A stretch of DNA of 58,026 bases from an uncultured Nitrospiraceae bacterium. Lineage in GTDB: Bacteria > Nitrospirota > UBA9217. The notes under the pieces are model-generated. The model was not told where the DNA came from. It saw nothing but the letters and a program-made list of their open reading frames with translations, and ran no database searches. Positions 1 to 34,095 of this stretch are shown piece after piece. The stretch spans positions 1 to 58,026 of the forward strand of contig CAYILT010000002.1 of assembly GCA_964364055.1 (NCBI GenBank), in the 5' to 3' direction. Made by a program: the position numbers and the translations under genes. Within the stretch, counting starts at the first letter, position 1, and each line of letters begins with the position of its first letter.

Positions 1-301
1 CCATGAGCCCAAGATGGTGCATGGACGCCTTCTGGGTAAGCCGCGCGGGAATGGCATCATTTTCAAGGGTGTCGATGTATCCCGGCTTTTGGCCGAAATT
101 GACGGCATCGACCATCAGGACCTTCTCTCTGCCCTCAATGAACGGGATCAGACCGAGTCCGGCAGCCCCGCCATCCACGATCTCCACATGCCCGGGGACC
201 GTGTATCGCCGCTCGAACTCGTTCACTGCGTGCACGCCGACCCCTTCATCGGTCATAAGTATGTTGCCAAGCCCTATGATCGAGACCGTTGGTTCCCGCA
301 T
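1..301 (-). CDS. hybD: [NiFe] hydrogenase maturation endopeptidase (HybD/HynC family), partial; 3' end runs off the window
   Basis: Absent from the ORF track because no stop lies in the window. My translation from the ATG at 301 gives MREPTVSIIGLGNILMTDEGVGVHAVNEFERRYTVPGHVEIVDGGAAGLGLIPFIEGREKVLMVDAVNFG..., a typical protease N-terminus, directly downstream of the large subunit. Confidence 0.8.
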   Translation of the reverse strand, partial: MREPTVSIIGLGNILMTDEGVGVHAVNEFERRYTVPGHVEIVDGGAAGLGLIPFIEGREKVLMVDAVNFGQKPGYIDTLENDAIPARLTQKASMHHLGLM

Positions 302-381: not shown

Positions 382-2082
382 TTACAGGGCCTTCACCGTG
401 ATGATATCTCTCCCTTTCGCGTCGACCATGTGAACGGCGCAGGCCAGACAGGGGTCGAAGGAATGCACGGTCCGGAGGACCTCCAGAGGCTTTTCCGGGT
501 CAGCCAGCGGCGTGCCAATGAGCGATGCTTCATACGGGCCTGGCTGATCGCTGCCGTTCCGCGGCGCCGCATTCCAGGTGGACGGGACGACGCACTGGTA
601 GTTCTTGATCTTCCCGCCGTCAATGACCGCCCAGTGCGACAGGATGCCTCGCGGCGCTTCGTGGAAACCCACGCCCCGTATTTCGCCGCTCGGGAACTTG
701 GGCGCATTGAAGGTCTTTACATCGCCCTTGCCGATGTTGGCGACCAGCGCGTTCCACTGGTTCGTGCACTCATCGTACAGCACCGCGCAGCGGACCGCCC
801 GTGCCCCGATGCGGCCGATGGTCGAGTGCAGCGCTGCCGGCCCGACCTTTGTCTTGGCGATCGCGCTGATGGCGTTCAGCATATCGGTGACATACTTCTT
901 TGTGCCGGCATGACCGGCGGCGTACATGCACAGCACGTTGGCCAGCGGACCAACCTGGGCGGGTTTGCCGTTGAACGTCGGCGCCTTGACCCAGGAATAT
1001 TTTCCATCGTACTGCATGCCCGTGTGATTCGGGTCCGTGGACCCTTCCCAGGGATGCTTGTTCCAGTCGCCCTTGTACCACGAATGTTTTACGCTCTCCT
1101 TAACGCCATTCTTGAAGAACTCGTCCTGGAAGCTCTTGATAGGCTTGAAGGTGCTGAGGTCAGCGTTCTCGATGTATCCGCCCGGAAGAGCGAAGGTCGT
1201 CCCCTTCGTGTCCATGGGCATGTCCGGCGCCGAGAGATAGTTCGTCACGCCGGCGCCGTATTTGGTCCAGTCGGCATACAAGGCCGCCACCGCCGCGACA
1301 TCAACCAGCATGGCGTTCATCACGAAACCGCCGACCTCGTCGATGAGCGTCTTGATGTAGTAGAGCCGCTCCATGTTGAGAGCCGACTGGTTGTCCAGAT
1401 TGATCGGATTCGAAACGCCGCCGACGGCCAGGTTCTGTATGTGGGGCGTTTTTGAGCCCAGGATCGCAACAACCTTGTTGATCCGACGCTGATAATCGAG
1501 TGCCTGCAGATAGTGGTGCGAGGCAAGCAGGTTGACCTCGGGCGAGAGCTTCATTGCCGGGTGGCCCCAGTAGCCGCTGCCGTAGATGCCGAGCTGACCG
1601 GACCCTACGAATGTCTTGAGCCGATCCTGAGACTGTTTAATATCCTGGTAGCTGTTATGCTTCCAGGATGACAGACTTTCGGCGAGCTGTGATGTCTTCC
1701 TGGGATCACCTTTGAGCGCTGATACGATGTCCACCCAGTCAAGCGCGGCAAGGTGATAAAAGTGCACGATGTGGTCATGCACGCCGTGAGCGGCCATGAT
1801 CAGGTTCCTGATATATTGTGCATTCAACGGGATCTCGAGCTGCAGCGCGTTCTCAACCGACCTCACCGAGGTCAGTGCGTGTACGGACGTTCAAACCCCG
1901 CAGATCCGTTGAGTGAAGAGCCAGACCTCCCGGGCATCCCTGCCCTTCACGATGTTCTCGATCCCGCGCCACATCTGGCCCGACGACCAAGCCTTGGTGA
2001 CCTTGCCGCCATCGATCTCGCAGTCTATTCTCAGATGGCCTTCGATCCTTGTTATCGGGTCTATCGTTATCCGTTTAGCCAT
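382..2082 (-). CDS. hybC: [NiFe] hydrogenase large subunit (group 1, Hyb-type operon context) with an in-frame TGA at 1891..1893, a candidate selenocysteine
   Basis: ORFs 1891..2082 (MAKRITIDPITRIEGHLRI...RICGV) and 382..1866 are in the same frame, separated only by the TGA. The joined read is RICGV-[TGA]-TSVHALTSVRSVENAL, which matches the RxCGxCxxxH motif. The C-terminus is DPCLACAVH (all Cys). Confidence 0.9.
1857..1875 (-). promoter_or_regulatory. Candidate bacterial SECIS hairpin
   Basis: mRNA reads UGA + 15 nt + CUGACCUC-GGU-GAGGUCGG: an 8-bp stem (7 Watson-Crick pairs plus 1 G-U) with an apical GGU whose first base lies 24 nt after the UGA. Confidence 0.55.
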
Positions 2083-2308: not shown

Positions 2309-3448
2309 TCAATGCTGTGTTTCCGGGAACAAATCAAGGTACTTCGCACATACCTTGAAACCGAGGATCGCGAAGGCAACCATCGCCGCAGTTACCAGGA
2401 ACTCGATCACCGAGGGGAAATAGTCCGAACCCGCCCTGCTTGCGTATTCGGCGACACCGAAAATGGCCACGTTCAGGCGGTTGAGCAGGACGCCGAGTAT
2501 CACAAGGATGTTGACCGTCAAAATGCTGTTAAGGTCGGTCCTCCGGTCTTTCGAGGAGAGCAGGGCCAGCGGCAGGATCACCCCAATGATCATCTCGAGA
2601 AGCCACATGTTCGCGGCGAGACTGCCGTTGAATGCCGCGCCGATCCCTGCTTTGACCGCCATATCGATGATCTTGAAGATCAGGTAGATGCTGCCCACAA
2701 TGATCGACCCTCGCGCGAGACCAAACAGGACCTCCCGCGGCGCCGCATGCTTGAACGCCCTTGAACTGATGATGGTCTCGAAACTCACCATGTTAAGTCC
2801 CAAGAAGACCGCCGAGAGCAGGAACAGGGTCGGCAGATTGCTGCTGTACCACAACGGTGAAAGCTTGGAAGGGACGATCAGGTAGACAGCCCCGAGCGAT
2901 GACTGGTGGAGCGTGGAGAGAAGGACCCCGAACAGCACGATGGGAACCATGATCTTGTTCACGGTTTTCAGTGCCCGTTTCCACCCGAGTTTCTCGAATA
3001 TCATGGGGCTCGACTCAGTAGCAAGGGTGGACGTATAGAGCACAACGTGAATGGCCACGATGAACATGATGGAATTGATCTGCCACATGAACATCGGATG
3101 CCAGATCCGATAGGGCCGGCCGATGTCCAGGGTGATCGCTGTGGCGGCCAGCAGATAACCAAAGAAGGCGGTCAGGATCGCGGGCCGCACGATGACCTTG
3201 TATTTCTTCCAGTTCAGGATGTAGACCGCACCCGCTATGATGAATCCGCCCGCGGCCATGGCCACTCCGCCCAGAACATCGATGCCGATCCAGAAACCCC
3301 AGGGCCAGAGGTCGTTGAGGTTCGTTGCCGCGCCGAGGCCGAAGAAGATCCGGAATATTACAGCGATCCCGCCGATAACGAGAAGGACCAGGAGCACCTT
3401 GGTGAGTGGGGTCATGATTTTTATTTCGCTGTGATTCGCCATGGTCAT
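2309..3448 (-). CDS. hybB: Integral membrane NrfD/HybB-family hydrogenase subunit
   Basis: 379-aa polytopic membrane protein (…LWPWGFWIGIDVLGGVAMAAGGFIIAG…). Its start overlaps the hybA stop (ATGA). Position matches E. coli hybOABC. Confidence 0.8.
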   Translation of the reverse strand: MTMANHSEIKIMTPLTKVLLVLLVIGGIAVIFRIFFGLGAATNLNDLWPWGFWIGIDVLGGVAMAAGGFIIAGAVYILNWKKYKVIVRPAILTAFFGYLLAATAITLDIGRPYRIWHPMFMWQINSIMFIVAIHVVLYTSTLATESSPMIFEKLGWKRALKTVNKIMVPIVLFGVLLSTLHQSSLGAVYLIVPSKLSPLWYSSNLPTLFLLSAVFLGLNMVSFETIISSRAFKHAAPREVLFGLARGSIIVGSIYLIFKIIDMAVKAGIGAAFNGSLAANMWLLEMIIGVILPLALLSSKDRRTDLNSILTVNILVILGVLLNRLNVAIFGVAEYASRAGSDYFPSVIEFLVTAAMVAFAILGFKVCAKYLDLFPETQH

Positions 3449-4449
3449 TCCTCCTTATCCCCGTCTTTTCTGCGCGTGATCGCCCATGTTGCGGCCCCTC
3501 CCACGAGCACCAGTGCCATGACCGCCGGTATCTTCGATATGTATGCCCACGTAAGGTCGGAAAGATTGGCATCGGTGATATTCTTGTTGAATCCGAGCAG
3601 TTCAAAGGGAACGCCCGCCAGAAGCAGATACTGCGTGCCGCCGGCTTCCTTCAAACCGTACGCATGGTTCACATAGCGCGACACCTTACGGAGATGCTTT
3701 TCCGGCGAATTCACCGTCTGTACGGGAAAAGCATATTCCGATCCGGGTTTCATCGCCAGCCGTCTCTTGGCCTCCTCACGGAGATCGACGACCTTGCCGA
3801 AGATCGAGGCGCCGGTCGGGCAATACTCGCAGCAGGCCGAGTACTTCCCCTCTGCAAAGCGGTGACGGCAGAGCTGGCATTTTCGCACCTGGGGCAGTGC
3901 CCGGTCCCACTCATATCTCGGTATACTGAAGGGGCAGGCCAGCATGCAGTAGCGGCATCCGATGCAGCGGCCCTCGATATAATAGACAACGCCATTGACC
4001 GGATCTTTCTTGAGCGCGCCGACGGGGCAGGTCGAGACGCACGCTGGTGTTATGCAGTGCAGGCAGTGCTGTTTGAGGAACGAATATCCATTTTCAGACG
4101 AATCCTTGTTCACCCCGGTGCCGCTCCGGTACGCTTTGATGATATTAAGCGTCTTTCCGGAAAGGTCATTCGGCGCATCCCAGATCTTCTCCGGCAAAGC
4201 GCTCTCATAGGGCGGGGCCTTCATCTTCGTTGAATAGAGCGCGCCCTCGGGAACACTGTTGTGTATTTTGCAGTTGACCATGCAGGACTTGCAGCCGACG
4301 CAGAGCGTCGCGTCATAAAGGATCCCCACCGCCTCGGGAGGCAGTTCCGTCGGCATCGATGCTGACACCGGGGCCGCTCCCGATGAGAGGAGCAGTCCCC
4401 CGCCTGCGGCGGTGACGGTCTTCAGAAAATGTCTTCTGGTGAGCGTCAT
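3445..4449 (-). CDS. hybA: Tat-exported 4Fe-4S ferredoxin-type hydrogenase electron-transfer subunit (HybA-like)
   Basis: Start reassigned to the ATG at 4449 (MTLTRRHFLKTVTAAGGG, twin-arginine signal). Cys clusters CVGCKSCMVNC, CLHCITPACVSTCP, CIGCRYCMLACP. C-terminal TM helix. Confidence 0.85.
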   Translation of the reverse strand: MTLTRRHFLKTVTAAGGGLLLSSGAAPVSASMPTELPPEAVGILYDATLCVGCKSCMVNCKIHNSVPEGALYSTKMKAPPYESALPEKIWDAPNDLSGKTLNIIKAYRSGTGVNKDSSENGYSFLKQHCLHCITPACVSTCPVGALKKDPVNGVVYYIEGRCIGCRYCMLACPFSIPRYEWDRALPQVRKCQLCRHRFAEGKYSACCEYCPTGASIFGKVVDLREEAKRRLAMKPGSEYAFPVQTVNSPEKHLRKVSRYVNHAYGLKEAGGTQYLLLAGVPFELLGFNKNITDANLSDLTWAYISKIPAVMALVLVGGAATWAITRRKDGDKEE

Positions 4450-4451
4450 GG

Positions 4452-5591
4452 CTACTCCTCCTTTTTCTTGTCCGCGGTATCGTCCTTCTTTCCAAGGCCT
4501 GTCAGCATTGCCGCCCCCGCGGCGCCGACCACAAGGCCCGCAACACCGGCGGCAAGCGCCTTTACGCTGGAAGATGTGCCCGGCTCGCCCGGATAGGCTT
4601 CCGTGAAGAATGTCGGAGGAGTGAGATACGCGGGATTTGACAATGTATGGAGCGGCATGCTGAAACCGACCCCTTTTTCGGTGCATCCGAAGCAGGGGTG
4701 GCCCGTGCCGACCGGCCATGCTCCCGATCCTACGTCATTGAAAAGAATGACCGGACAGTTCGCATGGGTCTCGGGACCTTTGCAGCCGAGCTTATAGAGG
4801 CAGAACCCCTTGCGGTGGCCCTCATCACCAAACCGCAGCGAGAACCTTCCCGCATCAAAATGAGGACGGCGCTCACAGTTTTCATGGATGAGTCGCTCGT
4901 AAGCGAATTTCGGCCTTCCCTTATCATCCAGCGCGGGAAGTTTCTGGAATGTGACGTAATACAGGACCGTCGAAAGAAAATTGTAGGGATTGGGCGGACA
5001 TCCCGGTATGTTCACGACCGGCGTTGCTATCCCCTTGTTCTTCATCACCTCATGCGCCGGCGTTGCACCCGTGGGATTTGGATCTGCCGAAGGTACGCCT
5101 CCCCATGAAGCACATGATCCTATTGCGATGACCGCGGCAGCCTGAGACGACATCTCCTCGAGCAGTGACAGGGCCGTCTTCCCCCCGATCTTGCAATAAA
5201 TGCCGTTGTCCTTGACCGGGATGGATCCGTCTACAACGAGAATGTACTTTCCCTTGTTCTCCTTCATTGCCTTCTCGCGCCAGGCTTCCGCCTGGTGCCC
5301 TGATCCGACAAGCAGCGTTTCATGATATTCGAGGGATATGAGCTCCAGGATCAGCCTGTCGAGGGTCGGGTGGTTCGACCGCAGCAGGGTCTCCGTGCAC
5401 CCGGTACATTCCTGCGCGGAGAGCCAAATGACCGGTGGGCGTTTTGCCGCACCGGTGACCGCCTCGGCTATCTGCTCACCGGCGCCGAGAGGCAGCCCCA
5501 TTCCTGCGGCCACGATACTGCAAAACTTAAGGAACTCCCTGCGTGACACACCAAGATGCTTGCTGACCGATTCGATATCTTTGTTCTTCAT
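4452..5591 (-). CDS. hybO: [NiFe] hydrogenase small subunit, Tat signal
   Basis: SRREFLKF twin-arginine motif, ECTGCTES, GCPPNP, and a C-terminal hydrophobic anchor. Confidence 0.92.
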   Translation of the reverse strand: MKNKDIESVSKHLGVSRREFLKFCSIVAAGMGLPLGAGEQIAEAVTGAAKRPPVIWLSAQECTGCTETLLRSNHPTLDRLILELISLEYHETLLVGSGHQAEAWREKAMKENKGKYILVVDGSIPVKDNGIYCKIGGKTALSLLEEMSSQAAAVIAIGSCASWGGVPSADPNPTGATPAHEVMKNKGIATPVVNIPGCPPNPYNFLSTVLYYVTFQKLPALDDKGRPKFAYERLIHENCERRPHFDAGRFSLRFGDEGHRKGFCLYKLGCKGPETHANCPVILFNDVGSGAWPVGTGHPCFGCTEKGVGFSMPLHTLSNPAYLTPPTFFTEAYPGEPGTSSSVKALAAGVAGLVVGAAGAAMLTGLGKKDDTADKKKEE

Positions 5592-12706: not shown

Positions 12707-14554
12707 TTAGAACGGGATCGTGATCCCGCCGCGGATCTCCTTGGGCGGCATCGGATAGCCCTGCACGGCCTCGTACTTCCGGTCAAAGATGTTGGTCATG
12801 GCGAAATAGATCTCGCCTTTCGCGTCAGCGCGGCGGCCGAACTTCTGCGCGAGTTTGGCGTCCACCACCGTGTAGCGCCATGCGGGTGCGCCCGGCAGCA
12901 CGTAATTTTCCACCATGCGCGCCTCGGTAAAGAGATGCACGTCCGTATCAAGGGCTATATCAAGGTGTCCCTTGACCTGATTTTTTGGATAGAGTGTGCT
13001 GTATATCTTGTCCCCGGTGATGACGTCGAGGGCCTTGAGATAGGTATAGTTCGCGCCCAGGCCCATGGTATCCGAGAGCCGGAACGCTGTTTCCGCCTCA
13101 ACGCCCTTGATGTCCGCTTTACCGATGTTCTCAGGCGACATGGGGAATACCATCCAATTCCAGTTGATAAGGTCCGTCACCTTCCGCCTGAATCCCGTGA
13201 CCTTGATCCGGTTTCCGGCCCCGAGTGGCTGCTCGATCCCGGCTTCATATTCTTTCGAGGTCTCCGGCTTCAGATCGGGATTTCCCACGGCATAAGGGTC
13301 CTTCCAGTACAGGTCATTGAACGTCGGGCCACGGAAACTCTTCCCATATGAGGCCCGTATGATCATCCCGGAACCCGCGACAAGATACCTTGCGCTCGTT
13401 CGTGGGCTGAACCGGTCGCCATACACCGAGTGTTTGTCCTTCCGTCCACCGACCACGACGATCAATGCGTCTCCCAGAGACAACTCGTCCTGCAGGAACC
13501 AGGCATCGTTGGTCGTCGCATGCTCCCCGGAGTCCGTGCTGGTCAGGTTGTCCTTACGCTGCTCATGGCCGAGAGAGAAAAGGTTCCACGAGCCTGCAAG
13601 CCAGTTGACCTGGGCCTCGCCCCCTTTGGAGGCACTCTTATGCAGACTGTCGATCGGAGGAGGTCCGAAGGCCGGCAAAGGATCCCGGTATCTCAGCTGG
13701 TCCTCGCTGCGGGACCCCGAGACCTTGAGGTCCAGCTCTTTACCGAGCCGCGTCCGAAACGATGCGCCGAGGACCAGCTCCCGCTCATGCTGTCGCGCGT
13801 ACGGGCTGGAATATTGCAAGGAACCGGGTGCGCCGTTCTCCTTGCCGATGTAGTTCGCCGTCAGGTCGATCGATGTGTCCTTCGAAACATCGTACCCCGC
13901 CCTTCCGTTCACGGTCCACTGCTCAAGGTCGCTGTTCAGCCGGTAACCGTCCGAAATCTCCCGGGTCCCTGTCACGGAGTAATATCCGGAGCCGTTGCGC
14001 GATGAAGTACTGAGCTGGAGGGAATCATACCCATGGCTGCCGGCGGCCCCGACTATCCGCGAGACCGTGCTCACCGGCTTCTTCGTAATGATGTTTACTA
14101 CGCCGCCAACGGCATCAGATCCGTACAGGGCCGACGACGGCCCCCGGACGATCTCGATCCGCTCAATGTCGTCAAGGGCCACCGGGAGGGCGGACAGGTC
14201 CACTCCGGCGTCGCGAGGCGAGTTCATCCGCACCCCGTCCAAGAGCACAAGGACCTGGGAATAGCTGGCGCCCCGTATGCTCAGCGTCGCGAGGCCGCCC
14301 CGCGTGCCCTGGTCCGTCAGAAATACACCGGTCACGGAACGCAGCGCCTCGGCCGCGGTCGTTGCGCCGGAGTTCTTCAGCTCCGCCGCGGTCACGACCG
14401 TCACCGACTGAGTCACATCCTTGAGTTCCTTCTCCGTCTTCGTGGCGGTCACCACTACTTCGTTCAATTTGACGTTTTTTTCCTGTGCTGAAACGATACT
14501 CCCGACACCTGAAATCAATACGGCTACTGCAACGACAGCGCTTGTTCTCTTCAT
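12707..14554 (-). CDS. btuB: TonB-dependent outer-membrane receptor, probable corrinoid receptor
   Basis: Signal peptide, TonB box and plug (VVVTATKTEKELKDV), C-terminal barrel ending in F. Preceded by a cobalamin riboswitch. Confidence 0.85.
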   Translation of the reverse strand: MKRTSAVVAVAVLISGVGSIVSAQEKNVKLNEVVVTATKTEKELKDVTQSVTVVTAAELKNSGATTAAEALRSVTGVFLTDQGTRGGLATLSIRGASYSQVLVLLDGVRMNSPRDAGVDLSALPVALDDIERIEIVRGPSSALYGSDAVGGVVNIITKKPVSTVSRIVGAAGSHGYDSLQLSTSSRNGSGYYSVTGTREISDGYRLNSDLEQWTVNGRAGYDVSKDTSIDLTANYIGKENGAPGSLQYSSPYARQHERELVLGASFRTRLGKELDLKVSGSRSEDQLRYRDPLPAFGPPPIDSLHKSASKGGEAQVNWLAGSWNLFSLGHEQRKDNLTSTDSGEHATTNDAWFLQDELSLGDALIVVVGGRKDKHSVYGDRFSPRTSARYLVAGSGMIIRASYGKSFRGPTFNDLYWKDPYAVGNPDLKPETSKEYEAGIEQPLGAGNRIKVTGFRRKVTDLINWNWMVFPMSPENIGKADIKGVEAETAFRLSDTMGLGANYTYLKALDVITGDKIYSTLYPKNQVKGHLDIALDTDVHLFTEARMVENYVLPGAPAWRYTVVDAKLAQKFGRRADAKGEIYFAMTNIFDRKYEAVQGYPMPPKEIRGGITIPF

Positions 14555-14582
14555 TCTATTCTTTCTCCTTCATCGAGGTTTT

Positions 14583-14763
14583 GGGAATGTGAGGTCTCCT
14601 GGCTTAGGACGGTTCGACATTGCTCACCGCCGTGAGCACATCGAACGGCTTCCTACTCGCCTGCCTTCCCATCCTTCAAAGGACAGTGGCCAGCCCGGCT
14701 TTCGTTTCCATCACAGTTGCGTGGCAGCGGGGGACTTGCACCCCCTTCCGCTTCATCATTCCC
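14583..14763 (-). promoter_or_regulatory. Cobalamin riboswitch (leader of btuB-tonB)
   Basis: Minus-strand RNA contains GGUGCAAGUCCCCCGCUGCC, GCCACUG, GGGAAGG and the B12 box AGCCAGGAGACCUC. P1 closes as GGAAUG.../...CAUUCC. Confidence 0.85.
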
Positions 14764-14959
14764 GTGTGTTTTTCCCATCAACAGCTCATTATGCTATTAA
14801 TATCCTCTCATGACGCCGCGATCACCTCCTTTATCAGAACCGGTCATGAACGATATAGGCGTTCCCGTTCTCCGAACGTTTCACCTCACTACCAGTCTGC
14901 ATACGCACACATAGCCTGAAATCGAACCCCTCAAGCGCTATCATCTCAAGACACGGCAT

Positions 14960-16228
14960 TTACAAACATTTCTCCGTCAATATCTGATAGAGCAAGTGAT
15001 CGATCTCGTCGATCAGCTCCTTGAAGACGCCGCCGTGGCTTTTCGATCGCGAGAAGAGTTCGTCCCGTAGCGAGACAATTTTCGGGTCTTGGCATTTTTC
15101 ATAGGTAATATGTTCATTCTGCATGGCAAAGCGTTCCCGCAAAAGCAATTCTCCGGCCTTATCAGTAAAAGGCTGTGCAAGGTTCCGGATCCGCTGGATG
15201 CGACTGGCCACGTCCGGCAATGTTGACAAGCCGTCCCTTCTCTCAAGAAGAACCACGACCTCATTCACCATGACCGATAGCGTGCAATACTCCAGGCCCC
15301 GTACGCCCCGTCGCCACTGCAGGAGCATGGGATTTCGCCAAAACCAGAGAAAATTTCGAAGACCGAGTCCGATCAGCCCATCAGTTGCCCGTCGTATATC
15401 GACCATACCGTTGTCCAACACGGGAACGGAGACGCTTCCGCGCTGCGGCCGAGGCTCGATTGCGTCCGGGGAGTTCCAGGCGCAGCCGAAATATCCCCAG
15501 ATGTTCCCCAGCACAGCAGTCCCGTTCGCGTCTCCCGGTGTGTCAAAGTGTACGAGCGACAGCAGCACCTTGCCCTTGCCGTACATTCCCTCGATGACGG
15601 CAGGCTCGCCGATCAAGCGCTTTGGATCAAGATTGATCTGATAGACCGCCTCCAGATCCTTCCAGCTGCCGGTCGACGTTCCGTCCCCGACATTGACGTC
15701 GGATGTAAAGGCATCGGGGAGCGCTTCGCCGTAGGTCGCGAGCACCTTTACGCTTTCATCTACCACGAACTGGGACGGCCACCATGCATGGTAGATCGGT
15801 TCATCGATTCCCTTCCAGAGGTCATGGTCCTGCGAAATGAGACGGATCCGCCCGCTGAAGCTCGGCACCCGCTCCTTCGTCGGCCTTCGCGTGACCGGTA
15901 CGAGGCCGATACCATCCTGGGTGGCGAGTCCCGCGCCTCCGCAGAAACCGATATAGTTTCCCCCCTGATCGACGAACTGCCGGATCGCGTCTATCCCGTC
16001 TTTCCCCAGGGCCTTTGCCTTGTTCGATGCCCATCCGCCGGGAACGAAGAGTGTCCTGTAGTCCGCGAGAACACCGCTCCTGATGTCCTCCGAGCGGACC
16101 AGCTCAAAGGGAAGACCAGCCGCCCGAAGGGCCTTGCAGGCCATCACGCCCCACAGGAAGGACTCATCCCAGAGAAAAGCTGCCCTGTTGTTATACTCCG
16201 AACTCCGCACTCCGCACTCCGCACTCAC
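14960..16228 (-). CDS. BPL_N / class-I glutamine-amidotransferase-like domain protein, function unknown
   Basis: FVPGGWASNKAKALGKDGIDAIRQFVDQGGNYIGFCGGAGLA resembles the biotin-protein-ligase N-terminal (GATase-like) fold. GTG start overlaps the cbiGH stop. Confidence 0.5.
   Translation of the reverse strand: MSAECGVRSSEYNNRAAFLWDESFLWGVMACKALRAAGLPFELVRSEDIRSGVLADYRTLFVPGGWASNKAKALGKDGIDAIRQFVDQGGNYIGFCGGAGLATQDGIGLVPVTRRPTKERVPSFSGRIRLISQDHDLWKGIDEPIYHAWWPSQFVVDESVKVLATYGEALPDAFTSDVNVGDGTSTGSWKDLEAVYQINLDPKRLIGEPAVIEGMYGKGKVLLSLVHFDTPGDANGTAVLGNIWGYFGCAWNSPDAIEPRPQRGSVSVPVLDNGMVDIRRATDGLIGLGLRNFLWFWRNPMLLQWRRGVRGLEYCTLSVMVNEVVVLLERRDGLSTLPDVASRIQRIRNLAQPFTDKAGELLLRERFAMQNEHITYEKCQDPKIVSLRDELFSRSKSHGGVFKELIDEIDHLLYQILTEKCL
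16195..16226. repeat. Heptanucleotide tract (ACTCCGC), about 4.5 units
   Basis: ACTCCGA ACTCCGC ACTCCGC ACTCCGC ACTC. Spans the cbiGH stop and the start of the BPL_N-like gene (MSAECGVRS). Confidence 0.85.
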
Positions 16229-18093
16229 ACGTCATATCCTCTCGGTGTTATCAACAGGTTGTTCCATACAAATGTTTTCGAGTTGCCGATGATCACGGTC
16301 GTCTGCATATCAACGTCAGTGTCCTGCATGCTCGCAAGATCCGTTACGATGACCATCTCCTGCTCCCGCATCGCGCCCTTCACGATGCCAACGGCCGTTT
16401 TCACGTTCCGATGCTTCAGGATGATCTCCCGAGCCCGGTTGAGATGGCCAGCCCGGCCTTTGCTCCGGGGATTGTACAGGACGATGACGAAGTCCGCTGC
16501 CGCGGCCGCCTCAAGACGCTTCTCGATCATTTCCCAGGGCGTCAGGCGGTCCGACAGGCTGATGCAGGCAAAATCATGCATCAGAGGAGCTCCGAGCCGC
16601 GAGGCAGCGGCATTCAGCGCGGAAATGCCGGGGATGACCTCGACTTCGGGACAGAGCGGAGTGCGGAGTGCGGAGTGCGGAGTGCTTTGATTCTCCGACT
16701 CCCGACTCCTGACCCCTGACTCCTGATTTCTCAGCAATTCAAACACCAGCCCCGCCATGGCATAAACGCCGGGGTCGCCGCCGCTGATCACGGAAACGGT
16801 CTTTCCAGCCTGCGCCAGTTCCACTGCTTTCCGGCACCGGTCGACCTCCTGCGTCATACCGGTCGAGACGACATCCTTGTCCTTGAGAAGCTCTTTGATG
16901 AGATCGAGATAAGTACCGTAGCCCACAATGACATCAGACCTTTTGATTGCGTCCCTGGCAGCGGGAGTGATATGCTCCAGGCTCCCCGGCCCGGTGCCCA
17001 CGATATGGATTTTGCCTTTTTGCTGTAGTTTTTTTTCTCCTTCACTCCACACTCCGCACTCCGCACTCCGCACTGTTTTGAAAGCCGCCGCCACGGTCAC
17101 GTTTCCTTTCTTTTGCTTCTGCACCAGCAGGCTGTCCGCCCCTGCAGCAAGGAGCGCTGCCGGTTCCGCGACGCCGAATGCGCCTGTAGCCCTGAATACG
17201 ACATCGGATCTTTCAATCCCTTCCACGCCGTTCAGCTCGCCACTCCTGAACACGTGCAGCGGGAAGTCATATTTCCGGGCAAACGCCCTGAGTCCCGGCT
17301 CGCTGCCTTTGATATCGATCGTGGCGATACAGCCGACGGACAGGAACGACAGATTGCGGCTGTCGAGCGTGCTCTGCACCGCATCCTCGATCTCCTCCTG
17401 CGACGTGCCGCTGTTGCACCCGATGCCGACAACCAGATTTCTGGGCCTGAGATACAGCTGTCCCTTCACCCGGCAATCGCACAGATCAATGTTTTTTTTA
17501 TTAGTAATCAGGATGTCGGCATATTTCGGGTCAGCTGTCCTTAAAAACTCGTCGGGAAGTTTAATTTCTGACCCCTGCCCCCCGACCCCTGACCCCTGCT
17601 CTTCATACACCCGCAGCGCGCCGTTGTTCACGAACCGCGTTCCGATCAGCGGGAGCATTCCCCGGTCCTCGATGACCAGATCATGCTCCCGCGCCCAGAG
17701 ATCGAGCGCAGGGAGCCCGTTCACGTCCGACGCAGTGGTGATGACCGCCTCGCCGCCCAGGAATGCCGCGATCTTGCGCGTCAGTTCGTTCGCGCCGCCG
17801 AGGTGGCCCCCCGCAAGGCTTATTGCATGCTTCCCCGCCTCATCGAGCACGACGACCGCGGGATCGGTCCGCTTGTCCTTGAGCAGCGGCGCGATGGTCC
17901 GCACAACGATGCCTGAGGCCATGATGAACACCAGGGCCTCGCTCCTCCGCCACAGGGCTTCGACAACAGCCGGAGCGTATTTCGCGATCTCCGCGTCTGG
18001 TGACCAGGACTTCAGCCGCTCCGCCACCCTGAGACCATTATCGGTAATATAGATGATCGCAGTTCGCTTCACTCCGCACTCCGCACTCGCCAC
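16225..18093 (-). CDS. cbiGH: CbiG-CbiH fusion (cobalt-precorrin-5A hydrolase / cobalt-factor III C17-methyltransferase)
   Basis: N-terminal half is CbiG-like. C-terminal half starts KGKIHIVGTGPGSLEHITPAARDAIKRSDVIVGYGTYLDLI (tetrapyrrole methylase). Carries several repeat-encoded inserts. Confidence 0.85.
   Translation of the reverse strand: MASAECGVKRTAIIYITDNGLRVAERLKSWSPDAEIAKYAPAVVEALWRRSEALVFIMASGIVVRTIAPLLKDKRTDPAVVVLDEAGKHAISLAGGHLGGANELTRKIAAFLGGEAVITTASDVNGLPALDLWAREHDLVIEDRGMLPLIGTRFVNNGALRVYEEQGSGVGGQGSEIKLPDEFLRTADPKYADILITNKKNIDLCDCRVKGQLYLRPRNLVVGIGCNSGTSQEEIEDAVQSTLDSRNLSFLSVGCIATIDIKGSEPGLRAFARKYDFPLHVFRSGELNGVEGIERSDVVFRATGAFGVAEPAALLAAGADSLLVQKQKKGNVTVAAAFKTVRSAECGVWSEGEKKLQQKGKIHIVGTGPGSLEHITPAARDAIKRSDVIVGYGTYLDLIKELLKDKDVVSTGMTQEVDRCRKAVELAQAGKTVSVISGGDPGVYAMAGLVFELLRNQESGVRSRESENQSTPHSALRTPLCPEVEVIPGISALNAAASRLGAPLMHDFACISLSDRLTPWEMIEKRLEAAAAADFVIVLYNPRSKGRAGHLNRAREIILKHRNVKTAVGIVKGAMREQEMVIVTDLASMQDTDVDMQTTVIIGNSKTFVWNNLLITPRGYDV
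16656..16726. repeat. Heptanucleotide tracts: (GCGGAGT)x4, then CTCC[C/T]GA-type units
   Basis: Read directly. Encodes ESGVRSRESENQSTPHSALRTP inside CbiH. Confidence 0.85.
17042..17073. repeat. Heptanucleotide tract (CACTCCG), about 4.5 units
   Basis: Encodes RSAECGVWSEG in the CbiG-CbiH linker. Confidence 0.85.
17568..17599. repeat. Heptanucleotide tract (GACCCCT-type)
   Basis: CTGACCCCTGCCCCCCGACCCCTGACCCCTGC. Encodes QGSGVGGQGS. Confidence 0.8.
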
Positions 18094-18101
18094 TCCGCAC
18101 T
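18070..18101. repeat. Heptanucleotide tract (CACTCCG-type) at the cbiGH 5' end
   Basis: Encodes the N-terminus MASAECGV and extends into the cbiF-cbiGH spacer. Confidence 0.8.
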
Positions 18102-18105
18102 TCTC

Positions 18106-18864
18106 CTACTTCCGGTACTCATGTTTAAAATCCTTATGGTAAAGTTTTGACTCTTTTCCCAGGGATATCTCGGACGCCCGGAGTGATTCCCCCACGTAGA
18201 TCAGCGCCGTCTTCCTGATGCCTGCGTCCTTCGCCAGAGAAGCGATGTCCGTCAGCGCGCCCCTGATAACCTTCTGGTCCGGCCACGACGCCTTCTCGAT
18301 GATCACCACAGGCGTATCCGGTGGATAGCCTTGCAGCAATTCGTCCCGCACCTTCTCGATCATGCCGACGCTTAAAAAGATCACCATGGTCGCGCGGTGC
18401 GAAGCCAGCGAACCCAGCCGCTCGGACGCAGGGACCGGGGTCCTGCCCTCCATCCGGGTTAAGATGACGGTCTGGCTTATCTCGGGGATGGTCAGCTCCT
18501 GCCCGAGGATCGCGGCGCCAGCCATGGCCGACGACACGCCCGGGATGACCTCATACAAAATATTCAGCTCACGGAGCCGTTCGATCTGCTCCGATATGGC
18601 GCTGTAGAACGACGTGTCCCCGGTGTGGAGCCTCGCCACAGACCTCTTGTTCTCCACGGCCTTTTTCATGACCGCGATGATCTCGTCAAGGTCCATGTTC
18701 GCGGAATCGAAGAGCTCGGCCTTGATGCCCGTGAGGAGTGCGGGGTTCACCAGACTTCCCGCATAGATCACCACGTCAGCGGCATCGAGTATCCTTCTGC
18801 CTTTCACGGTGATGAGCTCCGGGTCGCCCGGGCCCGCGCCTACAAACGTTATCATTGCGTTCAT
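18106..18864 (-). CDS. cbiF: Cobalt-precorrin-4 C11-methyltransferase
   Basis: ITFVGAGPGDPELITVKGRRILDAADVVIYAGSLV; 252 aa. Confidence 0.9.
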   Translation of the reverse strand: MNAMITFVGAGPGDPELITVKGRRILDAADVVIYAGSLVNPALLTGIKAELFDSANMDLDEIIAVMKKAVENKRSVARLHTGDTSFYSAISEQIERLRELNILYEVIPGVSSAMAGAAILGQELTIPEISQTVILTRMEGRTPVPASERLGSLASHRATMVIFLSVGMIEKVRDELLQGYPPDTPVVIIEKASWPDQKVIRGALTDIASLAKDAGIRKTALIYVGESLRASEISLGKESKLYHKDFKHEYRK

Positions 18865-19646
18865 CGTTTCCTCACGATCATGAGGGAGAAATAATTCAAT
18901 TCCTCCTCTTTCACCTGACTAATGTCTCTGTACACCCGTTCATCGTCCATGCCTGCCCGCACCACATAGATCGCCTGTGCCGCACGGTTCATCCTGTTCA
19001 GCATATCCCTGACCGTAGTGAATACCTTGCTGACCTTCATAAGCACCACGGTATCGAACTTCTCCAGCGTTTCCTCGAGGCTGTCCAGGTAATTCGCCGG
19101 CAAAATGGCGATCCGTTCATTGCCCAGTCCAAGATACAACCCGGCCCGTGCAGCAGCCGCGTTTATGGAAGATATGCCGGGAACGATCTCAATAACAAGA
19201 GCGGGCCTGAGCTCAAGCAGCCTGTCGTAGAGATAGAAGAACGTGCTGTAGATGCCGGGATCGCCGATCGTGATAAAGGCCGCGTCACGCCCTTGTTCAA
19301 GCACGGGAACGATAGCATGAACAGCTTCATTCCATTTGGCATTCAGATCATCTGCCTGCAATGCTTCCCTCTCCCCTCGCGGGAGAGTGCCGGCCTGCCC
19401 CGTTTGAGGCGGAGCCTCTTTCGGGGGGTGAGGGGCGGTTTTCATCATCGGGAAGTGCAGTTCCACGATTTTTTTGCCATCGAGATCGACAGCCCCACGC
19501 ATGATCGACAACGCAAGGCTCGTCCCTTCTTCGCGGCCTTTCGGCACAAAAATACACTGCGTCTCCTTCAGGATTCTGACCGACTTCAGCGTCAGAAGTT
19601 CAGGATCACCCGGCCCGACGCCGATAACATACAATTTTCCGGTCAT
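18861..19646 (-). CDS. cbiL: Cobalt-factor II C20-methyltransferase
   Basis: MTGKLYVIGVGPGDPELLTLKSVRILKETQCIFVP. Contains a repeat-encoded insert. Confidence 0.85.
   Translation of the reverse strand: MTGKLYVIGVGPGDPELLTLKSVRILKETQCIFVPKGREEGTSLALSIMRGAVDLDGKKIVELHFPMMKTAPHPPKEAPPQTGQAGTLPRGEREALQADDLNAKWNEAVHAIVPVLEQGRDAAFITIGDPGIYSTFFYLYDRLLELRPALVIEIVPGISSINAAAARAGLYLGLGNERIAILPANYLDSLEETLEKFDTVVLMKVSKVFTTVRDMLNRMNRAAQAIYVVRAGMDDERVYRDISQVKEEELNYFSLMIVRKR
19367..19438. repeat. G/C-rich palindromic element inside cbiL
   Basis: CCCTCTCCCCTCGCGGGAGAG...GGGGGGTGAGGGGCGG. Encodes KTAPHPPKEAPPQTGQAGTLPRGERE. Confidence 0.7.
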
Positions 19647-20116
19647 GTTCCTCCTCGTCGCGACCTCTTCGCGGCCCGCAAAAATAAATCTTCCCGTAGA
19701 TTATCGTTCTTGCCCGCGTGACGGACGACCATCTTCACAAGCTCGCCTTTTTCGAGACTGTCCAGGTATTTCTCCACGTCCTTCATGGTTATCTCGGCGC
19801 TCTTCGCCTTTCGGACCTTGCCGCCTTTTTCCTTTGCGCCTTTGCTGAGCCAGGTGAGACCGACAGCCACGCAATGCTTGCAGAAATCTCCGTCATCGCC
19901 CACCGGACAGGTGCAGGAATAATCCAGTTCACCGTCGTCGTCCCATAATCTGACTTTGTAGGTACGCGTTCCTTCCACCTTTGCCGTGATTTCACCCTCA
20001 CGCTCGGTCAACGGACCGACCACATCCATTTCGTAATATTCTTCACCGCGTTCGTATGACCTTGGGTCGGCCAGATTGCGGAGTGTAGTTCGAGTCAGTA
20101 TGTTTTTCATGATCAT
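19643..20116 (-). CDS. Short SWIM zinc-finger protein
   Basis: Start moved to MIMKNILTR. CTCPVGDDGDFCKHCVAVGL is a CxCx(n)CxH SWIM motif. Stop overlaps the cbiL start (ATGA). Confidence 0.7.
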   Translation of the reverse strand: MIMKNILTRTTLRNLADPRSYERGEEYYEMDVVGPLTEREGEITAKVEGTRTYKVRLWDDDGELDYSCTCPVGDDGDFCKHCVAVGLTWLSKGAKEKGGKVRKAKSAEITMKDVEKYLDSLEKGELVKMVVRHAGKNDNLREDLFLRAAKRSRRGGT

Positions 20117-20148
20117 AATGTACCCTTCGATTTGGTGCGGCGCGTTCG

Positions 20149-20195
20149 CCCCGTTAGAGGCCGCGATCGCTTGCCGCGAACTGCCTCTAACGGGG
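20149..20195. repeat. Perfect 13-bp inverted repeat (REP-like hairpin) between vapC and the SWIM gene
   Basis: CCCCGTTAGAGGC - 21 nt - GCCTCTAACGGGG. The loop contains GCGATCGC. Confidence 0.6.
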
Positions 20196-20210
20196 TTCGG
20201 GGAATGCGTT

Positions 20211-20609
20211 CTACAATTTTTTATCCCAGATGGTCTGAACCTTGTACTTCCTGATGAACGCGTCTGAAGTGATAATCGGAATCCCCTCCATGACTGCCTG
20301 GGCAATGAGGATTCTGTCAAAGGGGTCCCGGTGAAAAGAAGGCAGATGAAATACATGGAGAGCGTGGCTCGCCTCGACAGGCAACGTCTGGACGGCATTC
20401 AGCGCCATTTGTTCGACGATGAACGCATCCGGATGCGCGGGTAGCATAATCTTGCCGAGCCCCGCCTTGATCGCGATCTCCCAGCAACTCGCGGCGCTCA
20501 GAAACAATTCATTATCGTCGTCCGCGATTATCTCGCGCACACGCCGGGGCAGTTGCGGCGAGTCCATAATCCACCAGATAAATACGTGCGTATCGAGCAG
20601 CGCCCTCAT
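20211..20609 (-). CDS. vapC: PIN-domain toxin VapC
   Basis: MRALLDTHVFIWW...SAASCWEIAIK...; 132 aa; 4-bp overlap with the antitoxin gene. Confidence 0.85.
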   Translation of the reverse strand: MRALLDTHVFIWWIMDSPQLPRRVREIIADDDNELFLSAASCWEIAIKAGLGKIMLPAHPDAFIVEQMALNAVQTLPVEASHALHVFHLPSFHRDPFDRILIAQAVMEGIPIITSDAFIRKYKVQTIWDKKL

Positions 20610-20839
20610 TTCTCGAACTCATCGGCAAGCAACGACGGCAACGGTTCCGTAAAACCCTTTTTCAGAGTAATCCGTCCCTTCGCGCTCCCCGGCTCCCTTT
20701 TTTGCGTCTTCCCGATCAGCGGTAATAGACGTGCCACCGGTTTTCCGGCCTTGGCGATAACGATCTCTTCTCCGCCGGCCACCCTGCTCAAAAGTCTCGA
20801 AAAATGAGTCTTCGCCTCATGCACATTTACCATCGTCAT
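20606..20839 (-). CDS. Phd/YefM-type antitoxin
   Basis: MTMVNVHEAKTHFSRLLSRVAGGEEIVIAKAGKPVARLLP; 77 aa. Confidence 0.8.
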   Translation of the reverse strand: MTMVNVHEAKTHFSRLLSRVAGGEEIVIAKAGKPVARLLPLIGKTQKREPGSAKGRITLKKGFTEPLPSLLADEFEK

Positions 20840-20862
20840 AGCTATCGAGCCTCCTGAACATC

Positions 20863-20891
20863 ATATTAGACTAAGACATGGACTAAGTCAA
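20863..20891 (-). promoter_or_regulatory. Sigma-70-like promoter with a candidate operator for the toxin-antitoxin pair
   Basis: Minus strand reads TTGACT - 17 nt - TAATAT. The spacer holds the direct repeat TTAGTC..TTAGTC. Confidence 0.5.
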
Positions 20892-20959
20892 GGTAGAACA
20901 GCGCCTCATCGGGCATGCCTTCCATCTGTACCCGGAAATTTAAACCAACCCGCCATTCC

Positions 20960-21416
20960 TTAATCGCCCTGCCCGTGCGGCAGCATGACAAGTTCCTCCG
21001 CATCCGAGGTGTCCGCGAATATCGACTCGTTGATAATCCTCTCGGCAATAGCATCGAGATGCTTGGTAAGCTCTTTTTCGAGTTCCTGGTATTCAGGCCA
21101 CAGTGTCCTGTTCACAAAGCCCTTTGAAACCCGTGCCATGACGGTGGTATGCCGCTGGCGATAATAGCGATAGGGCTTAATGTCGTAACGCCGCAGTAAA
21201 GCAGTGAACAGCCGTCGGGACCATTGATTATTCATGGTGAACGTGTATTCAATCGGCGGATCAGCTTCGCCGAATTGGCGAATCTTGTCCTTGATTCGCT
21301 GGCGCGCATAATCAGCGGCGGAACGTTCGCCCTCCGTACCCGCCGCCGGCGTGCAAGGCTTCGATCAATTTTAGTTTTTCGATCAGTTTGTTTACGTCAT
21401 AATTTACTTCATTCAT
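20960..21416 (-). pseudogene. Frameshifted hypothetical gene
   Basis: ATG at 21416 reads MNEVNYDVNKLIEKLKLIEALHAGGGYGGRTFRR*. The adjacent frame is open from 21364 (..AAGTEGERSAAADYARQRIKDKIRQFGEADPPIEYTFT) and runs straight into the 91-aa ORF 20960..21235. The frames switch inside a GCCGGCGGCGGG run. Confidence 0.45.
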
Positions 21417-21499
21417 GGTGAGGTCCTTTTGGTACCGCGACACGCTAAAAACGAAACATATGTCATCGGTTCGGTCCGTTCGGGGAACGGACCCTACCT

Positions 21500-24400
21500 T
21501 TATATTTTCGATTTGTTGTCTGCCGGCTCCACCAGCAACTGCAGCAGCTCGTCCGGCGATATCCTGCCGCTCATGTCGCTGCCTTCGAGGAGGCTGTCCG
21601 CCAGGTCCCTTTTGTGCTGGTGCAGGTCAACGATCTTTTCTTCGATGGTCCCCTTTGTTATCAGGCGGTAAATGGTAACCGGGCGTTCCTGACCGATCCG
21701 GTAAGCGCGGTCCGACGCCTGGTCCTCAACGGCCGGGTTCCACCAGGGGTCCATGTGCATAACATAGTCCGCGGCGGTGAGGTTCAGCCCCAAACCGCCC
21801 GCCTTGAGACTGATAAGAAACACATCACCGTCGCCTGCCTGAAAGGCGTCCACGCTTCGCTTCCGTTCCCGGGGCGGCGTGCTTCCGTCGATATACTGGT
21901 AGGGTATCTTTTTCTCTTCCAGGAACTCCCGCATGATCTCGAGATGGCCCACGAACTGGCTGAAGATGAGCGCCTTATGCTTATTATCGAGAAGTTCCTC
22001 CAAAGTCTCCACAAAAAGCTCGAACTTGCTGCTTTTGGTCTTTGTATCGGGAACAACAAGCCGGGGATTGCAGCAAAGCCTTCGCAGTCTCATGATCTCC
22101 GCGAGGATCTGGATGCTCTTCCGCCCCATATTCCCCTCCACCCGGGCGATCCTGTCGAGAGACTGCCGTCTCATGGCCTCATACAGCGCCGTCTCTTCTT
22201 CCCCAAGTTCGACATGGAGGATGATCTCCGTTTTTTGCGGCAATTCAGTCAGCACCTGGGTTTTGAGCCTGCGCAGAATAAAGGGCTGGACCAGCCTTTT
22301 CAGCCTTGTGCGCGCATGATGGTCATTGCCCCGTTCTATTGGATTGGCGAACCTTCTGTTGAAAGCATCAAGAGATCCGAGCAGTCCCGGATTTATGAAC
22401 CGGAACAGGTTCCACAACTCGTCAAGATGATTTTCCACGGGAGTGCCCGTGGTAATGATCTTGAACCGGCCCTGCAGCTTCATGGCCGCCTGCGAACGCA
22501 TGGTAGCGGCGTTTTTGATCGCCTGGGCCTCATCGAGCACGATCGTCTCCCATTCAACGGAAGCCAGAAGTTCCTCTTCCTGCTGGAGCAGGCCATAACT
22601 GCAAACCATGAGATCGAAAGGCCGGAGCGAAGCCGCGGTTTCTTTGCGGTCACCGGCCCCGAATTGGAAAACATTCAAGGTGGGGGCGAAACGCTTTGCC
22701 TCCTCCATCCAGTTCATGCAAACCGAAGTAGGGGCCACTACGAACGCGGGACCGTTCGCCGCGCGGCTGATGATGAGCGCCAAAGCCTGGATCGTTTTGC
22801 CGAGCCCCATATCGTCGGCCAGACAAGCGCCCACTCCCCAGTGGGCCAGACGGGCAAGCCATGCATAACCCTCCGTCTGATAGTCCCGCAATTCGGCCTG
22901 AAGTGTGGAAGGGACCACGGGCTGCAGCGCCTGCGCGCTCTGAATGCGGGTCATCTGTTCTTTCCATTGACTGTCCGTTTCCAGGTCCGTGCCGGCGGTC
23001 AGCTCCTCGATTGCGGGGGCCGCAAGGGGATGAAAACGCACGCCCTTGGCATGGCGTTCCGAGAGCGAAGCCAGGTCATCAAGACGTTTCCTGAACTCCC
23101 TGGTCAGCGCGAGAAACTCGCCGTTCCCCAATGGAAGAAAACGGCCCGGCGTCGCGTCCAGAAGTTCCAGGAGCTGCCGGAGTTCCATTACCTTGTCTTC
23201 GTTCAACCGTATCTCGCCGTTCAGACTGAACCAGTCGTTCTCCCGTTTAATGGCCATACGAAAACCGTCGAACGATATCTGGCGCGTGATTTTGAACTTC
23301 GCCCCCTCGGGCCAGTCCACGCACACCTTATCACCCAGGCCCTGAAGCTCCGTAAGCAGCTCCAGACAGTCCTCGGGCTCGTCAATATGCCATTCGCCAT
23401 CGAGGTCCTCATACTGGTCCAGGACCGTACAAGCCTGAAGCGTTTCCTCGACCATTCTTCGTTCCATCTCCAGCGAACGTTTTGTCTGGAGCCGCTCGTT
23501 GTCAATTTCAGCAATGACGGTCTCGCCCCCCTTGCCGGGCGAATAGTATGGACCTTTGCCGGAAAAGGGCCTGACCAGCGCCTGGATCTTGAGTCCTTCC
23601 TGAAACGGCATCATCACGACATGCGGGGTCGGATCGGACGGCGCTTCCTTGATATTTTCCATGCTGCCGCCGATTTCCGACTGAATATGGACAAGAGAGG
23701 ATATCGCGGAAATTGCTTCGAGCACCTTCTCCGACGCCGACAAGGGAACGCGAACACCCTCGCCGATAATGCGCGAAAGGGCCTTATGCTTTTCCGTCAG
23801 CTCCACCAGCCGGAAGCGGGTGGGGGTTTCCCTGATCACGGTTACCTTCGCATCCGGTGAGCACACGGGATACAGCGTTATGAAGATATTTTTTTTATTT
23901 CGGGAAACAAAAACCTCGGGCTCGCCCTTTACGAGTTCCACCCTGACACCCGGCGCGTCTTTCAGGAAGACCAGCGGATGCCCCGCCAGTTCAGTCAAAG
24001 CCGCAAGGCCGAATTCGTTATAATGCCCCCAATAGGGATTGTCCTGCGCTAACCGGGCGGCAAGCCTCTTGTCCTGTTCAGTAAGATAAGATGATTTTTC
24101 CGAGTAGCGGTAAAGATCGTACATCGCAAGGGCCCTGCCTTTTGACCAGCCGCCCTTGGCGCTCATTTTCTGCTCCAGCGGATGCACCCGGCAGGTCCCC
24201 TTTTCGTTATATTCGAACAGCCATACCAGCCTTTTCTCGTTCACGACCGGGGACACAATGGCGCCTATGTTTTTCAAAGCGGCAAGAGAGCGCTCCCACG
24301 GCTCTTCCGGGACGATCAGGTCAAGAACACTCCGCATACCCGAGGCCTGACGAAACGCCGCGGCTTCAGCGCCGTATTCCTCGTTTTTTCCGTCCAGCCG

Positions 24401-25657: not shown

Positions 25658-25738
25658 ATTGTTCCATCAGGATAAATATTGTATGCACATGAGAATATAA
25701 CCGTAGGGACCGGTCCCCGAATGGTCAGAACCTTATCA

Positions 25739-26281
25739 TCAGGTTCGATAAAAGGGCTCATTAAACATTGTAGCCTTCCTGTCACGCTCGGAGATGCAGC
25801 GCGTAGGACAACTGACGCACTTGCCTGTCAGGGAATCCCATGCCTTCGCGGCCGTCGTCAGCAGGCGGTTTACCAACTCGTCGCCGATATGCGGGAAGTA
25901 CGCCTCGATGCTTCTGTAACCGAACTCAATGCTCCCGATTTTACCCGATACACGCGCCAGAACTTGCTCGCTCATCTGTTTGGCATGCTGAATGCAGAAT
26001 ACCGCAATGGCCCGGCCGTCAACGCCTTTGCTACCCAGTCGTGCATGGAGCTTCTTGTCCCGATGAATATGAGCCTCATACTCGAGCGCATATTCGAAGA
26101 GAAACCAATTGAGCTTCGTCTTTTCCGTTTCCGAATTATGGAAAGCGTCTGGGGAAATAAAACGTTCTCTGGTCACTATATTTTTCCGATATAACATGAT
26201 CAGCCGCCTCGTCGGGTCCGGAATTTCATTGAACGCGCTGTGCTTCACCGGTCCGCAGAGGCCATAAGGAGGCGTCAACAA
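25739..26281 (-). CDS. Hypothetical protein (start uncertain; alternative ATG at 26197)
   Basis: Open frame with a Cys-rich C-terminus, GKCVSCPTRCISERD. No family recognised. Confidence 0.4.
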   Translation of the reverse strand: MLTPPYGLCGPVKHSAFNEIPDPTRRLIMLYRKNIVTRERFISPDAFHNSETEKTKLNWFLFEYALEYEAHIHRDKKLHARLGSKGVDGRAIAVFCIQHAKQMSEQVLARVSGKIGSIEFGYRSIEAYFPHIGDELVNRLLTTAAKAWDSLTGKCVSCPTRCISERDRKATMFNEPFYRT

Positions 26282-26326
26282 ATTAAGGTGTCATCCTGGA
26301 GCCTCTAGTAAAAGCATTCAGGGTGG

Positions 26327-26400: not shown

Positions 26401-26459
26401 GGACAGTTGCTACCTTTATTTATTGACGCTGCCTAACACGTGAATCATCTGCGCACCCG

Positions 26460-34071: not shown

Positions 34072-34095
34072 TCAATTTTCCTTCTATTGTAAAAT

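Follow-up and report, generated by a model that had tools for sequence, protein, structure and literature searches.

In the canonical [NiFeSe] hydrogenases, HysAB of Desulfovibrio and Desulfomicrobium and Vhu/Fru of Methanococcus, one UGA-encoded selenocysteine (Sec) serves as a ligand of the nickel. This Sec takes the place of the first Cys in the C-terminal DPCxxC motif, where it is a terminal ligand on the proton path, and to our knowledge the biochemistry and structures of natural [NiFeSe] hydrogenases all concern Sec at this terminal, proton-relay position. Here we describe a hydrogenase gene of an uncultured Nitrospiraceae bacterium that likewise has one UGA at a nickel ligand but carries Cys at the C-terminal position. 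The gene is hybC-like and lies on the minus strand of contig CAYILT010000002.1 (assembly GCA_964364055.1), of which positions 1 to 58,026 were analyzed and are called the window. It very probably encodes a periplasmic, membrane-anchored uptake hydrogenase of the hydrogenase 2 (Hyd-2) type in which the UGA of codon 64 is recoded to Sec at a bridging position by means of an in-frame selenocysteine insertion sequence (SECIS).

Hydrogenases of a CxxU type have been reported before. Zhang and Gladyshev (2007) found CxxU, not the known UxxC, in one of the two metal-binding motifs of a hydrogenase large subunit labelled FrhA from the Olavius delta-symbiont (PMC1976440); this is the motif type seen in the window enzyme. 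Baltazar et al. (2011) are cited by one later paper for three sequences, two of group 1 and one of group 3, that have an N-terminal CXXU, the motif type of the window enzyme, with Sec predicted to be bridging (PMC13582414). Evans et al. (2021) cite the same study for 'purported examples' in which the substituted residue is the bridging, C-terminal Cys579 (PMC8020662), so the two citing papers disagree in these passages on the position of Sec. Takano et al. (2026) described 47 enzymes of group 4 in which Sec is confined to the N-terminal motif (27 CXXU and 16 UXXU among them), and likewise placed the second Cys position of this motif in CXXU hydrogenases at the Ni-Fe bridge (PMC13582414). These group 4 genes resemble the window gene in having Sec in the N-terminal motif, a SECIS within the coding region whose apical loop has a conserved G, sporadic and repeated origins from Cys ancestors, and degenerate SECIS-like hairpins in Cys-type relatives. 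They belong to energy-converting membrane-bound complexes, whereas the window enzyme is of the periplasmic uptake type (group 1c), and group 1 was left out of that survey by design (PMC13582414). No survey of group 1 for bridging Sec was found in the literature. We know of no natural bridging-Sec (CxxU) enzyme that has been characterized biochemically. The original prediction, made from the window sequence alone, held that a selenolate at this position would be an undescribed kind of active site; given the natural CxxU reports and the engineered variants, this was not borne out. Judged by its sequence, the window gene is a further case of the already reported, biochemically unexplored CxxU hydrogenases.

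The engineered variants come from E. coli. The C79U variant of hydrogenase 1 (Hyd-1) kept 13% of the native activity, the best of four variants; its apparent KM for H2 was lowered, and at 10% O2 it had almost no activity (Evans et al. 2021, PMC8020662). In Hyd-2, which the same paper places in group 1c, Sec variants at positions 61, 64, 546 and 549 were all active (4/4; Evans et al. 2024, PMC11212049), and the Cys64-to-Sec variant among them carries Sec at a position identical to that in the window enzyme. E. coli Hyd-2 also shares with the window locus 59% identity, the same numbering up to codon 64, the hybO-A-B-C-D gene order and a C-terminal extension. In the E. coli variant Sec was put in artificially at UAG through EF-Tu, whereas the window gene has a natural UGA and a predicted in-frame SECIS. 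The features of the window gene are as follows:

382..2082, minus strand: hybC-like gene for a [NiFe] hydrogenase large subunit, 566 sense codons long when its one UGA is read through (HybC homology, NCBIfam).
1891..1893, minus strand: codon 64, an in-frame UGA for which selenocysteine is predicted; Ni-Fe bridging position (aligns with HybC Cys64).
1879..1908, minus strand: N-terminal Ni-binding motif RICGV-U-TSVH (translation).
430..456, minus strand: C-terminal Ni-binding motif DPCLACAVH, all Cys (translation).
1856..1876, minus strand: predicted SECIS hairpin ACUGACCUC-GGU-GAGGUCGGU, stem of 8-9 bp (folding and comparison).

Translation of 382..2082 (-) ended at a terminal stop, and the TGA of codon 64 was the sole internal stop; there were no frameshifts and no further stops in the frame. 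As originally predicted, a 63-aa open reading frame (ORF; 1891..2082) and a 494-aa ORF (382..1866) lie in one frame and are parted by this TGA. The eight codons from the TGA to the GTG start chosen by the ORF finder, TSVHALTS, are open and conserved, and a Shine-Dalgarno-like AGGAGG precedes the ATG of the gene. E. coli HybC and the window protein were collinear (1-566 vs 1-567, E = 8e-239). Since the alignment had no gap ahead of residue 64, the UGA codon corresponds to HybC Cys64, in agreement with the earlier claim that it occupies the place of the second RxCGxC cysteine near the N-terminus. The position matches Cys79 of Hyd-1 and Cys68 of the D. gigas enzyme, and its Cys is one of the two Ni-Fe bridging ligands. 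The C-terminal motif was also read correctly as having all its Cys residues. It is followed by a 15-residue extension, which in alignments to mature HybC chains resembled the tail cut from E. coli HybC at maturation. Among the window's 39 ORFs, TGA was also the most frequent ordinary stop, ending 18 of them, and the genetic code is therefore not reassigned. A window-wide scan for other in-frame TGA selenoprotein candidates returned only spurious off-frame ORFs.

The codon equivalent to codon 64 was then compared among related loci, 80 from species-representative genomes and 80 from metagenome contigs. It was TGA in 73 of these 160 tabulated loci, TGC in 74 and TGT in 13; with one locus added separately (L093), the counts were 74 of 161 for TGA and 87 of 161 for TGC or TGT, so the predicted alternation of TGA and Cys codons among orthologs was seen. 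A full-length read-through ORF was found in 160/160 tabulated loci, and the genomes nearest to the window locus were metagenome-assembled genomes of Nitrospirota. That TGA should coincide with a Cys codon in 74 of the 161 orthologs is beyond chance. This pairing of UGA with Cys (Sec/Cys pair) is the classical mark of a selenoprotein gene. In L093 itself (982-2679), a TGA-type gene of the window's clade, Leu replaces the otherwise invariant Arg of RxCGxC (QLICGV-U-TSVH), which is either an assembly error or a real variant.

In a midpoint-rooted BLOSUM62 neighbor-joining tree, built without bootstrap, the TGA-type (hereafter Sec-type) sequences formed three clades interleaved with Cys-type sequences. 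Each clade has its own predicted hairpin 3' of the UGA:

Clade A (the window's clade): 21 sequences in the tree, Nitrospirota, sister to the Cys-type L006; hairpin CUGACCUC-GGU-GAGGUCGG, UGA-to-loop distance 23 nucleotides (nt), -10.5 kcal/mol.
Clade B: 7 sequences in the tree, Nitrospirota, RFCGVU motif; hairpin ACGCACUG-GCUU-CAGUGCGU, UGA-to-loop distance 18 nt, -11.9 kcal/mol.
Clade C: 45 sequences in the tree, mostly Desulfobacterales, with the Cys-type L035 nested inside; hairpin CUCGGUC-CGGGC-GAUCGAG, UGA-to-loop distance 27 nt, -7.6 kcal/mol.

Inside the Sec clades, protein sequences were 85-88% identical along the full alignment, the 63 codons ahead of the UGA included. Fitch parsimony gave at least four Cys/Sec changes and a Cys root, a rough count on a tree of this kind. 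The Sec clades were 78%, 76% and 82% identical to their nearest Cys-type sequences and 72-74% identical to one another. The only independent support for this count comes from these between-group identities and from the differing hairpins, which agree with separate histories of the Sec clades. The bridging-Sec hydrogenases of the Hyd-2 type (group 1c) likely form a large uncatalogued natural class of three clades, each with a different SECIS at the same place in the coding region.

Several observations concern individual sequences and residues of these clades. L035, the Cys-type gene within clade C, is probably a reversion to Cys. L006, the Cys-type sister of clade A, retains the GAGG arm of the hairpin (CUGGCCUCGGUGAGGGCGG), which may be a remnant or a precursor of the SECIS. 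In each of the three Sec clades most sequences had Thr157, Tyr167 and Ile425, residues that were rare among the 87 Cys-type sequences; this sharing, in a comparison uncontrolled for phylogeny, could be due to common ancestry or to co-adaptation. E. coli HybC, a Cys-type enzyme, likewise has Ile aligned with residue 425, which argues against a direct link between Ile425 and Sec.

The three hairpins listed above all fit published rules for bacterial SECIS elements, which call for a loop of 3-9 nt, a stem of 4-16 bp, a G in loop position 1 or 2, a distance of 16-37 nt from the UGA and an energy of -7.5 kcal/mol or lower (PMC13188914). In the window, the 8-bp core with its GGU loop was found downstream of the UGA at 1857..1875 (-), as had been claimed, and an added A-U pair extends it to 9 bp at 1856..1876. 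Its stem begins 15 nt past the UGA, its loop follows after a gap of 23 nt, and the energies were -10.5 and -12.2 kcal/mol; the claim that its geometry is that expected of a bacterial SECIS thus held. Among dinucleotide shuffles of the window sequence, 7.5% satisfied the bacterial SECIS rules and 2.1% yielded a hairpin of -10.5 kcal/mol or lower, so that the window hairpin taken alone is only modestly unusual. An Rfam scan of the window matched no SECIS family and returned only six cobalamin riboswitches. Because energy and shuffles say little by themselves, the significance of the hairpin rests on comparative evidence.

This evidence came from the orthologs. The rules were satisfied by 48 of 55 distinct Sec-type sequences and 19 of 80 distinct Cys-type sequences (Fisher p = 9e-14), confirming the expected co-occurrence of a SECIS-type hairpin with TGA, and the 7 Sec-type sequences that failed were near-misses. 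Synonymous diversity in the 7-codon window directly 3' of the UGA ranked, from the lowest, 2-3 of 283 in clade A, 1 of 377 in clade B and 1 of 180 in clade C, whereas the same codons in Cys-type genes were ordinary (0.436 vs an average of 0.478 over the gene). The clade A hairpin kept its 8 pairs in 17/17 distinct sequences (100% of stem cells pair). Changes in the stem were one-sided (U-G/U-A and A-U/G-U), apart from one double compensatory change from C-G to U-A in L091. The fit to the rules, the synonymous constraint and the conservation of pairs together show that RNA-level selection acts on a SECIS-type hairpin tied to the presence of the UGA. In clade A, synonymous diversity also dips a second time, to its lowest value in the gene, at codons 35-41 (about 1960..1980, SGQMWRGIEN), 29 codons upstream of the UGA, where scorable codons are few.

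In the mechanism that we propose, codon 64 of the hybC-like mRNA would be decoded as Sec rather than as a stop. The hairpin 15-33 nt past the UGA, within the coding sequence, would recruit SelB carrying Sec-tRNA(Sec). One of the two thiolates that bridge Ni and Fe would thereby become a selenolate in the mature enzyme, and the remaining three ligands, Cys61, Cys545 and Cys548, would stay sulfur. We infer that Sec, not Cys, is inserted at codon 64 and that the source genome has selABCD; selB and selC have been reported in Nitrospirae (PMC13188914).

Several results weigh against recoding to Sec by this hairpin. No tRNA-Sec was found by ARAGORN in the 58-kb window or in the 160 loci, and sel genes were likewise missing from about 40 window ORFs scanned with Pfam and from the locus flanks. 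The 62-nt region did not fold better than its shuffles (z = +0.78), and the region was not more stable in Sec-type than in the GC-richer Cys-type orthologs (-15.8 vs -19.4 kcal/mol). Furthermore, 24% of the Cys-type sequences satisfied the SECIS rules too, and the covariation in clade A was weak, with few events and 27 of 500 shuffles reaching the observed score; the weakness of this shuffle statistic is due to the shallowness of the clade. The same UGA/Cys pairing and the same constraint on the SECIS would also be seen if the UGA were recoded to Cys, by a tRNA-ReC, which resembles tRNA(Sec), charged by cysteinyl-tRNA synthetase and delivered by SelB to the same SECIS, giving an ordinary all-Cys Hyd-2. 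Takano et al. (2026) flagged tRNA-ReC as a limit of all in-silico Sec calls (PMC13582414). Such recoding to Cys would, however, require an extra tRNA in each of the three clades and would keep a costly UGA and SECIS in 74 loci with no obvious gain over the TGC used by close relatives. Neither the window nor the loci, which are a small part of a genome, yielded such a tRNA, and we consider recoding to Cys unlikely.

A lone in-frame stop in a lone sequence would normally point to a decaying pseudogene or to an assembly or sequencing error for TGC, and public annotations do split the gene, giving 494-aa products such as P0005 without the N-terminus. The same TGA was present, however, in 74 independent assemblies. 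The frames were intact, identity in the Sec clades was high, and the synonymous sites beside the UGA were under selection. Pseudogene decay, which the original prediction had named as a possible refutation, and sequencing error are excluded, in our judgment close to certainty, because the TGA recurs across loci with full-length read-through ORFs. It is just as improbable that translation stops at the UGA and restarts at the GTG at 1866, so that a 63-residue peptide and a 494-residue protein would make up a split large subunit. Split large subunits do exist, as in Vhu of Methanococcus voltae (VhuA/VhuU), and the GTG of the ORF finder lies 25 nt past the TGA. Yet a restart there would lose the conserved TSVHALTS with the invariant His of the motif and, as the stop falls on a metal-ligand codon, would leave an enzyme lacking a bridging ligand. 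The GTG itself is the conserved Val of SVR, and no Shine-Dalgarno sequence was seen ahead of it. Recoding of the UGA to Sec thus remained the preferred explanation.

The split was seen throughout public gene calls for the window's clade, which consisted of 485-495-aa 'hydrogenase large subunits' with the N-terminus missing and 86-87% query coverage. These truncated calls fell into clusters P0005, P0011, P0025, P0027, P0031, P0049, P0073, P0080, P0092 and P0096, and P0005, that of the 494-aa product, had 136 member sequences. The Sec form is systematically mis-annotated in public gene calls, as a 63-aa stub and a 494-aa 'hydrogenase', and surveys built on called proteins therefore miss or misclassify it.

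The large-subunit gene is part of an operon on the minus strand in the order hybO-hybA-hybB-hybC-hybD, whose other members are:

4452..5591, minus strand: hybO-like small subunit with twin-arginine translocation (Tat) signal (best match hydrogenase 2 small subunit; TIGR00391 above cut-off).
3445..4437, minus strand: hybA-like 4Fe-4S ferredoxin-type subunit (HybA equivalog, 353.5 bits vs cut-off 263).
2309..3448, minus strand: hybB-like NrfD-family integral membrane subunit (Hyd-2 model best match).
2..301, minus strand: hybD-like maturation endopeptidase, incomplete at the window end (Hyd-2 model best match).

The longest HybA-like ORF begins at 4719, which would mean an overlap of about 270 nt with the small-subunit gene. 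The hybA-like gene probably starts at the ATG at 4437 (MTLTRRHFLK, Tat motif), and from this start the protein fits the HybA model beginning at model position 4. For HybB, HybO and HybD the Hyd-2 models matched best, with scores under the equivalog cut-offs. The best NCBIfam match of the large subunit was NF007778, hydrogenase 2 large subunit, at 889.7 bits and thus under the equivalog cut-off of 969. Its top matches in the PDB were without exception Hyd-2 large chains, from E. coli and Citrobacter. The protein has the signatures of [NiFe] group 1c, N-terminal RxCGxCxxxH (with U for the second Cys) and C-terminal DPCxxCxxH. We assign the large subunit to group 1c (Hyd-2 / HybC type) by this kinship to E. 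coli Hyd-2, itself a group 1c enzyme. Two other identities were ruled out. For a canonical [NiFeSe] enzyme (group 1a HysA), the first C-terminal Cys is kept and the HysA models scored well under their cut-offs (NF045518, 342.9 vs 780; NF033181, 460.9 vs 600); PDB [NiFeSe] chains aligned over residues 177-561 only (E about 1e-74 to 1e-77). For a group 4 energy-converting enzyme, the best matches were all group 1 periplasmic enzymes, the small subunit has a Tat signal and the operon is of the hyb type.

Elsewhere in the window, a large cluster for anaerobic cobalamin biosynthesis and transport was found at 12707..55361 (-). It includes CbiG, CbiD and CbiC-CbiX, several tetrapyrrole methylases, amidotransferases of the CobQ/CbiA type and CobD, and further a CobT-like DBI_PRT protein, CbiMQO, BtuR and a TonB-dependent receptor. 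The cluster is controlled by six cobalamin riboswitches identified with Rfam:

14594-14749
35238-35430
36301-36502
47477-47660
47720-47907
55173-55361

The riboswitch at 14594..14749 matched only model positions 47-167 of 189, though it is clear of the sequence ends, and precedes the TonB-dependent receptor (12707-14554) and a TonB gene (12029-12679). The tandem riboswitches at 47477..47907 are flanked on one side by a ThiC-family radical S-adenosylmethionine (SAM) gene (46058-47368), beside the CobT-like gene. On the other side (47981-52373) lie two radical SAM genes, one of them B12-binding, and a gene with O-methyltransferase and DUF2284 domains. The gene set at 46058..52373 resembles a bza operon, for anaerobic synthesis of a benzimidazole lower ligand. 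The cobalamin cluster is broken at 19643..25657 by a 1385-aa SNF2-family helicase and an adjoining SWIM zinc-finger protein, and three ORFs beside them (25739-27916) had no Pfam match.

The effects of a bridging selenolate are known from engineered E. coli variants only, and a natural bridging-Sec enzyme would show whether protein context makes the substitution advantageous. The dozens of relatives of the window gene and the matched Cys-type sisters (such as L006 and L035) offer natural Sec/Cys pairs for experiment. The presence of TGA in 74 of the 161 closest homologs, in three clades, far exceeds the 'two sequences' cited for group 1. If these hydrogenases do form a large natural class, selection would have repeatedly favored bridging selenium in uptake hydrogenases, and the class would provide natural counterparts to the engineered Cys64-to-Sec variant of HybC.

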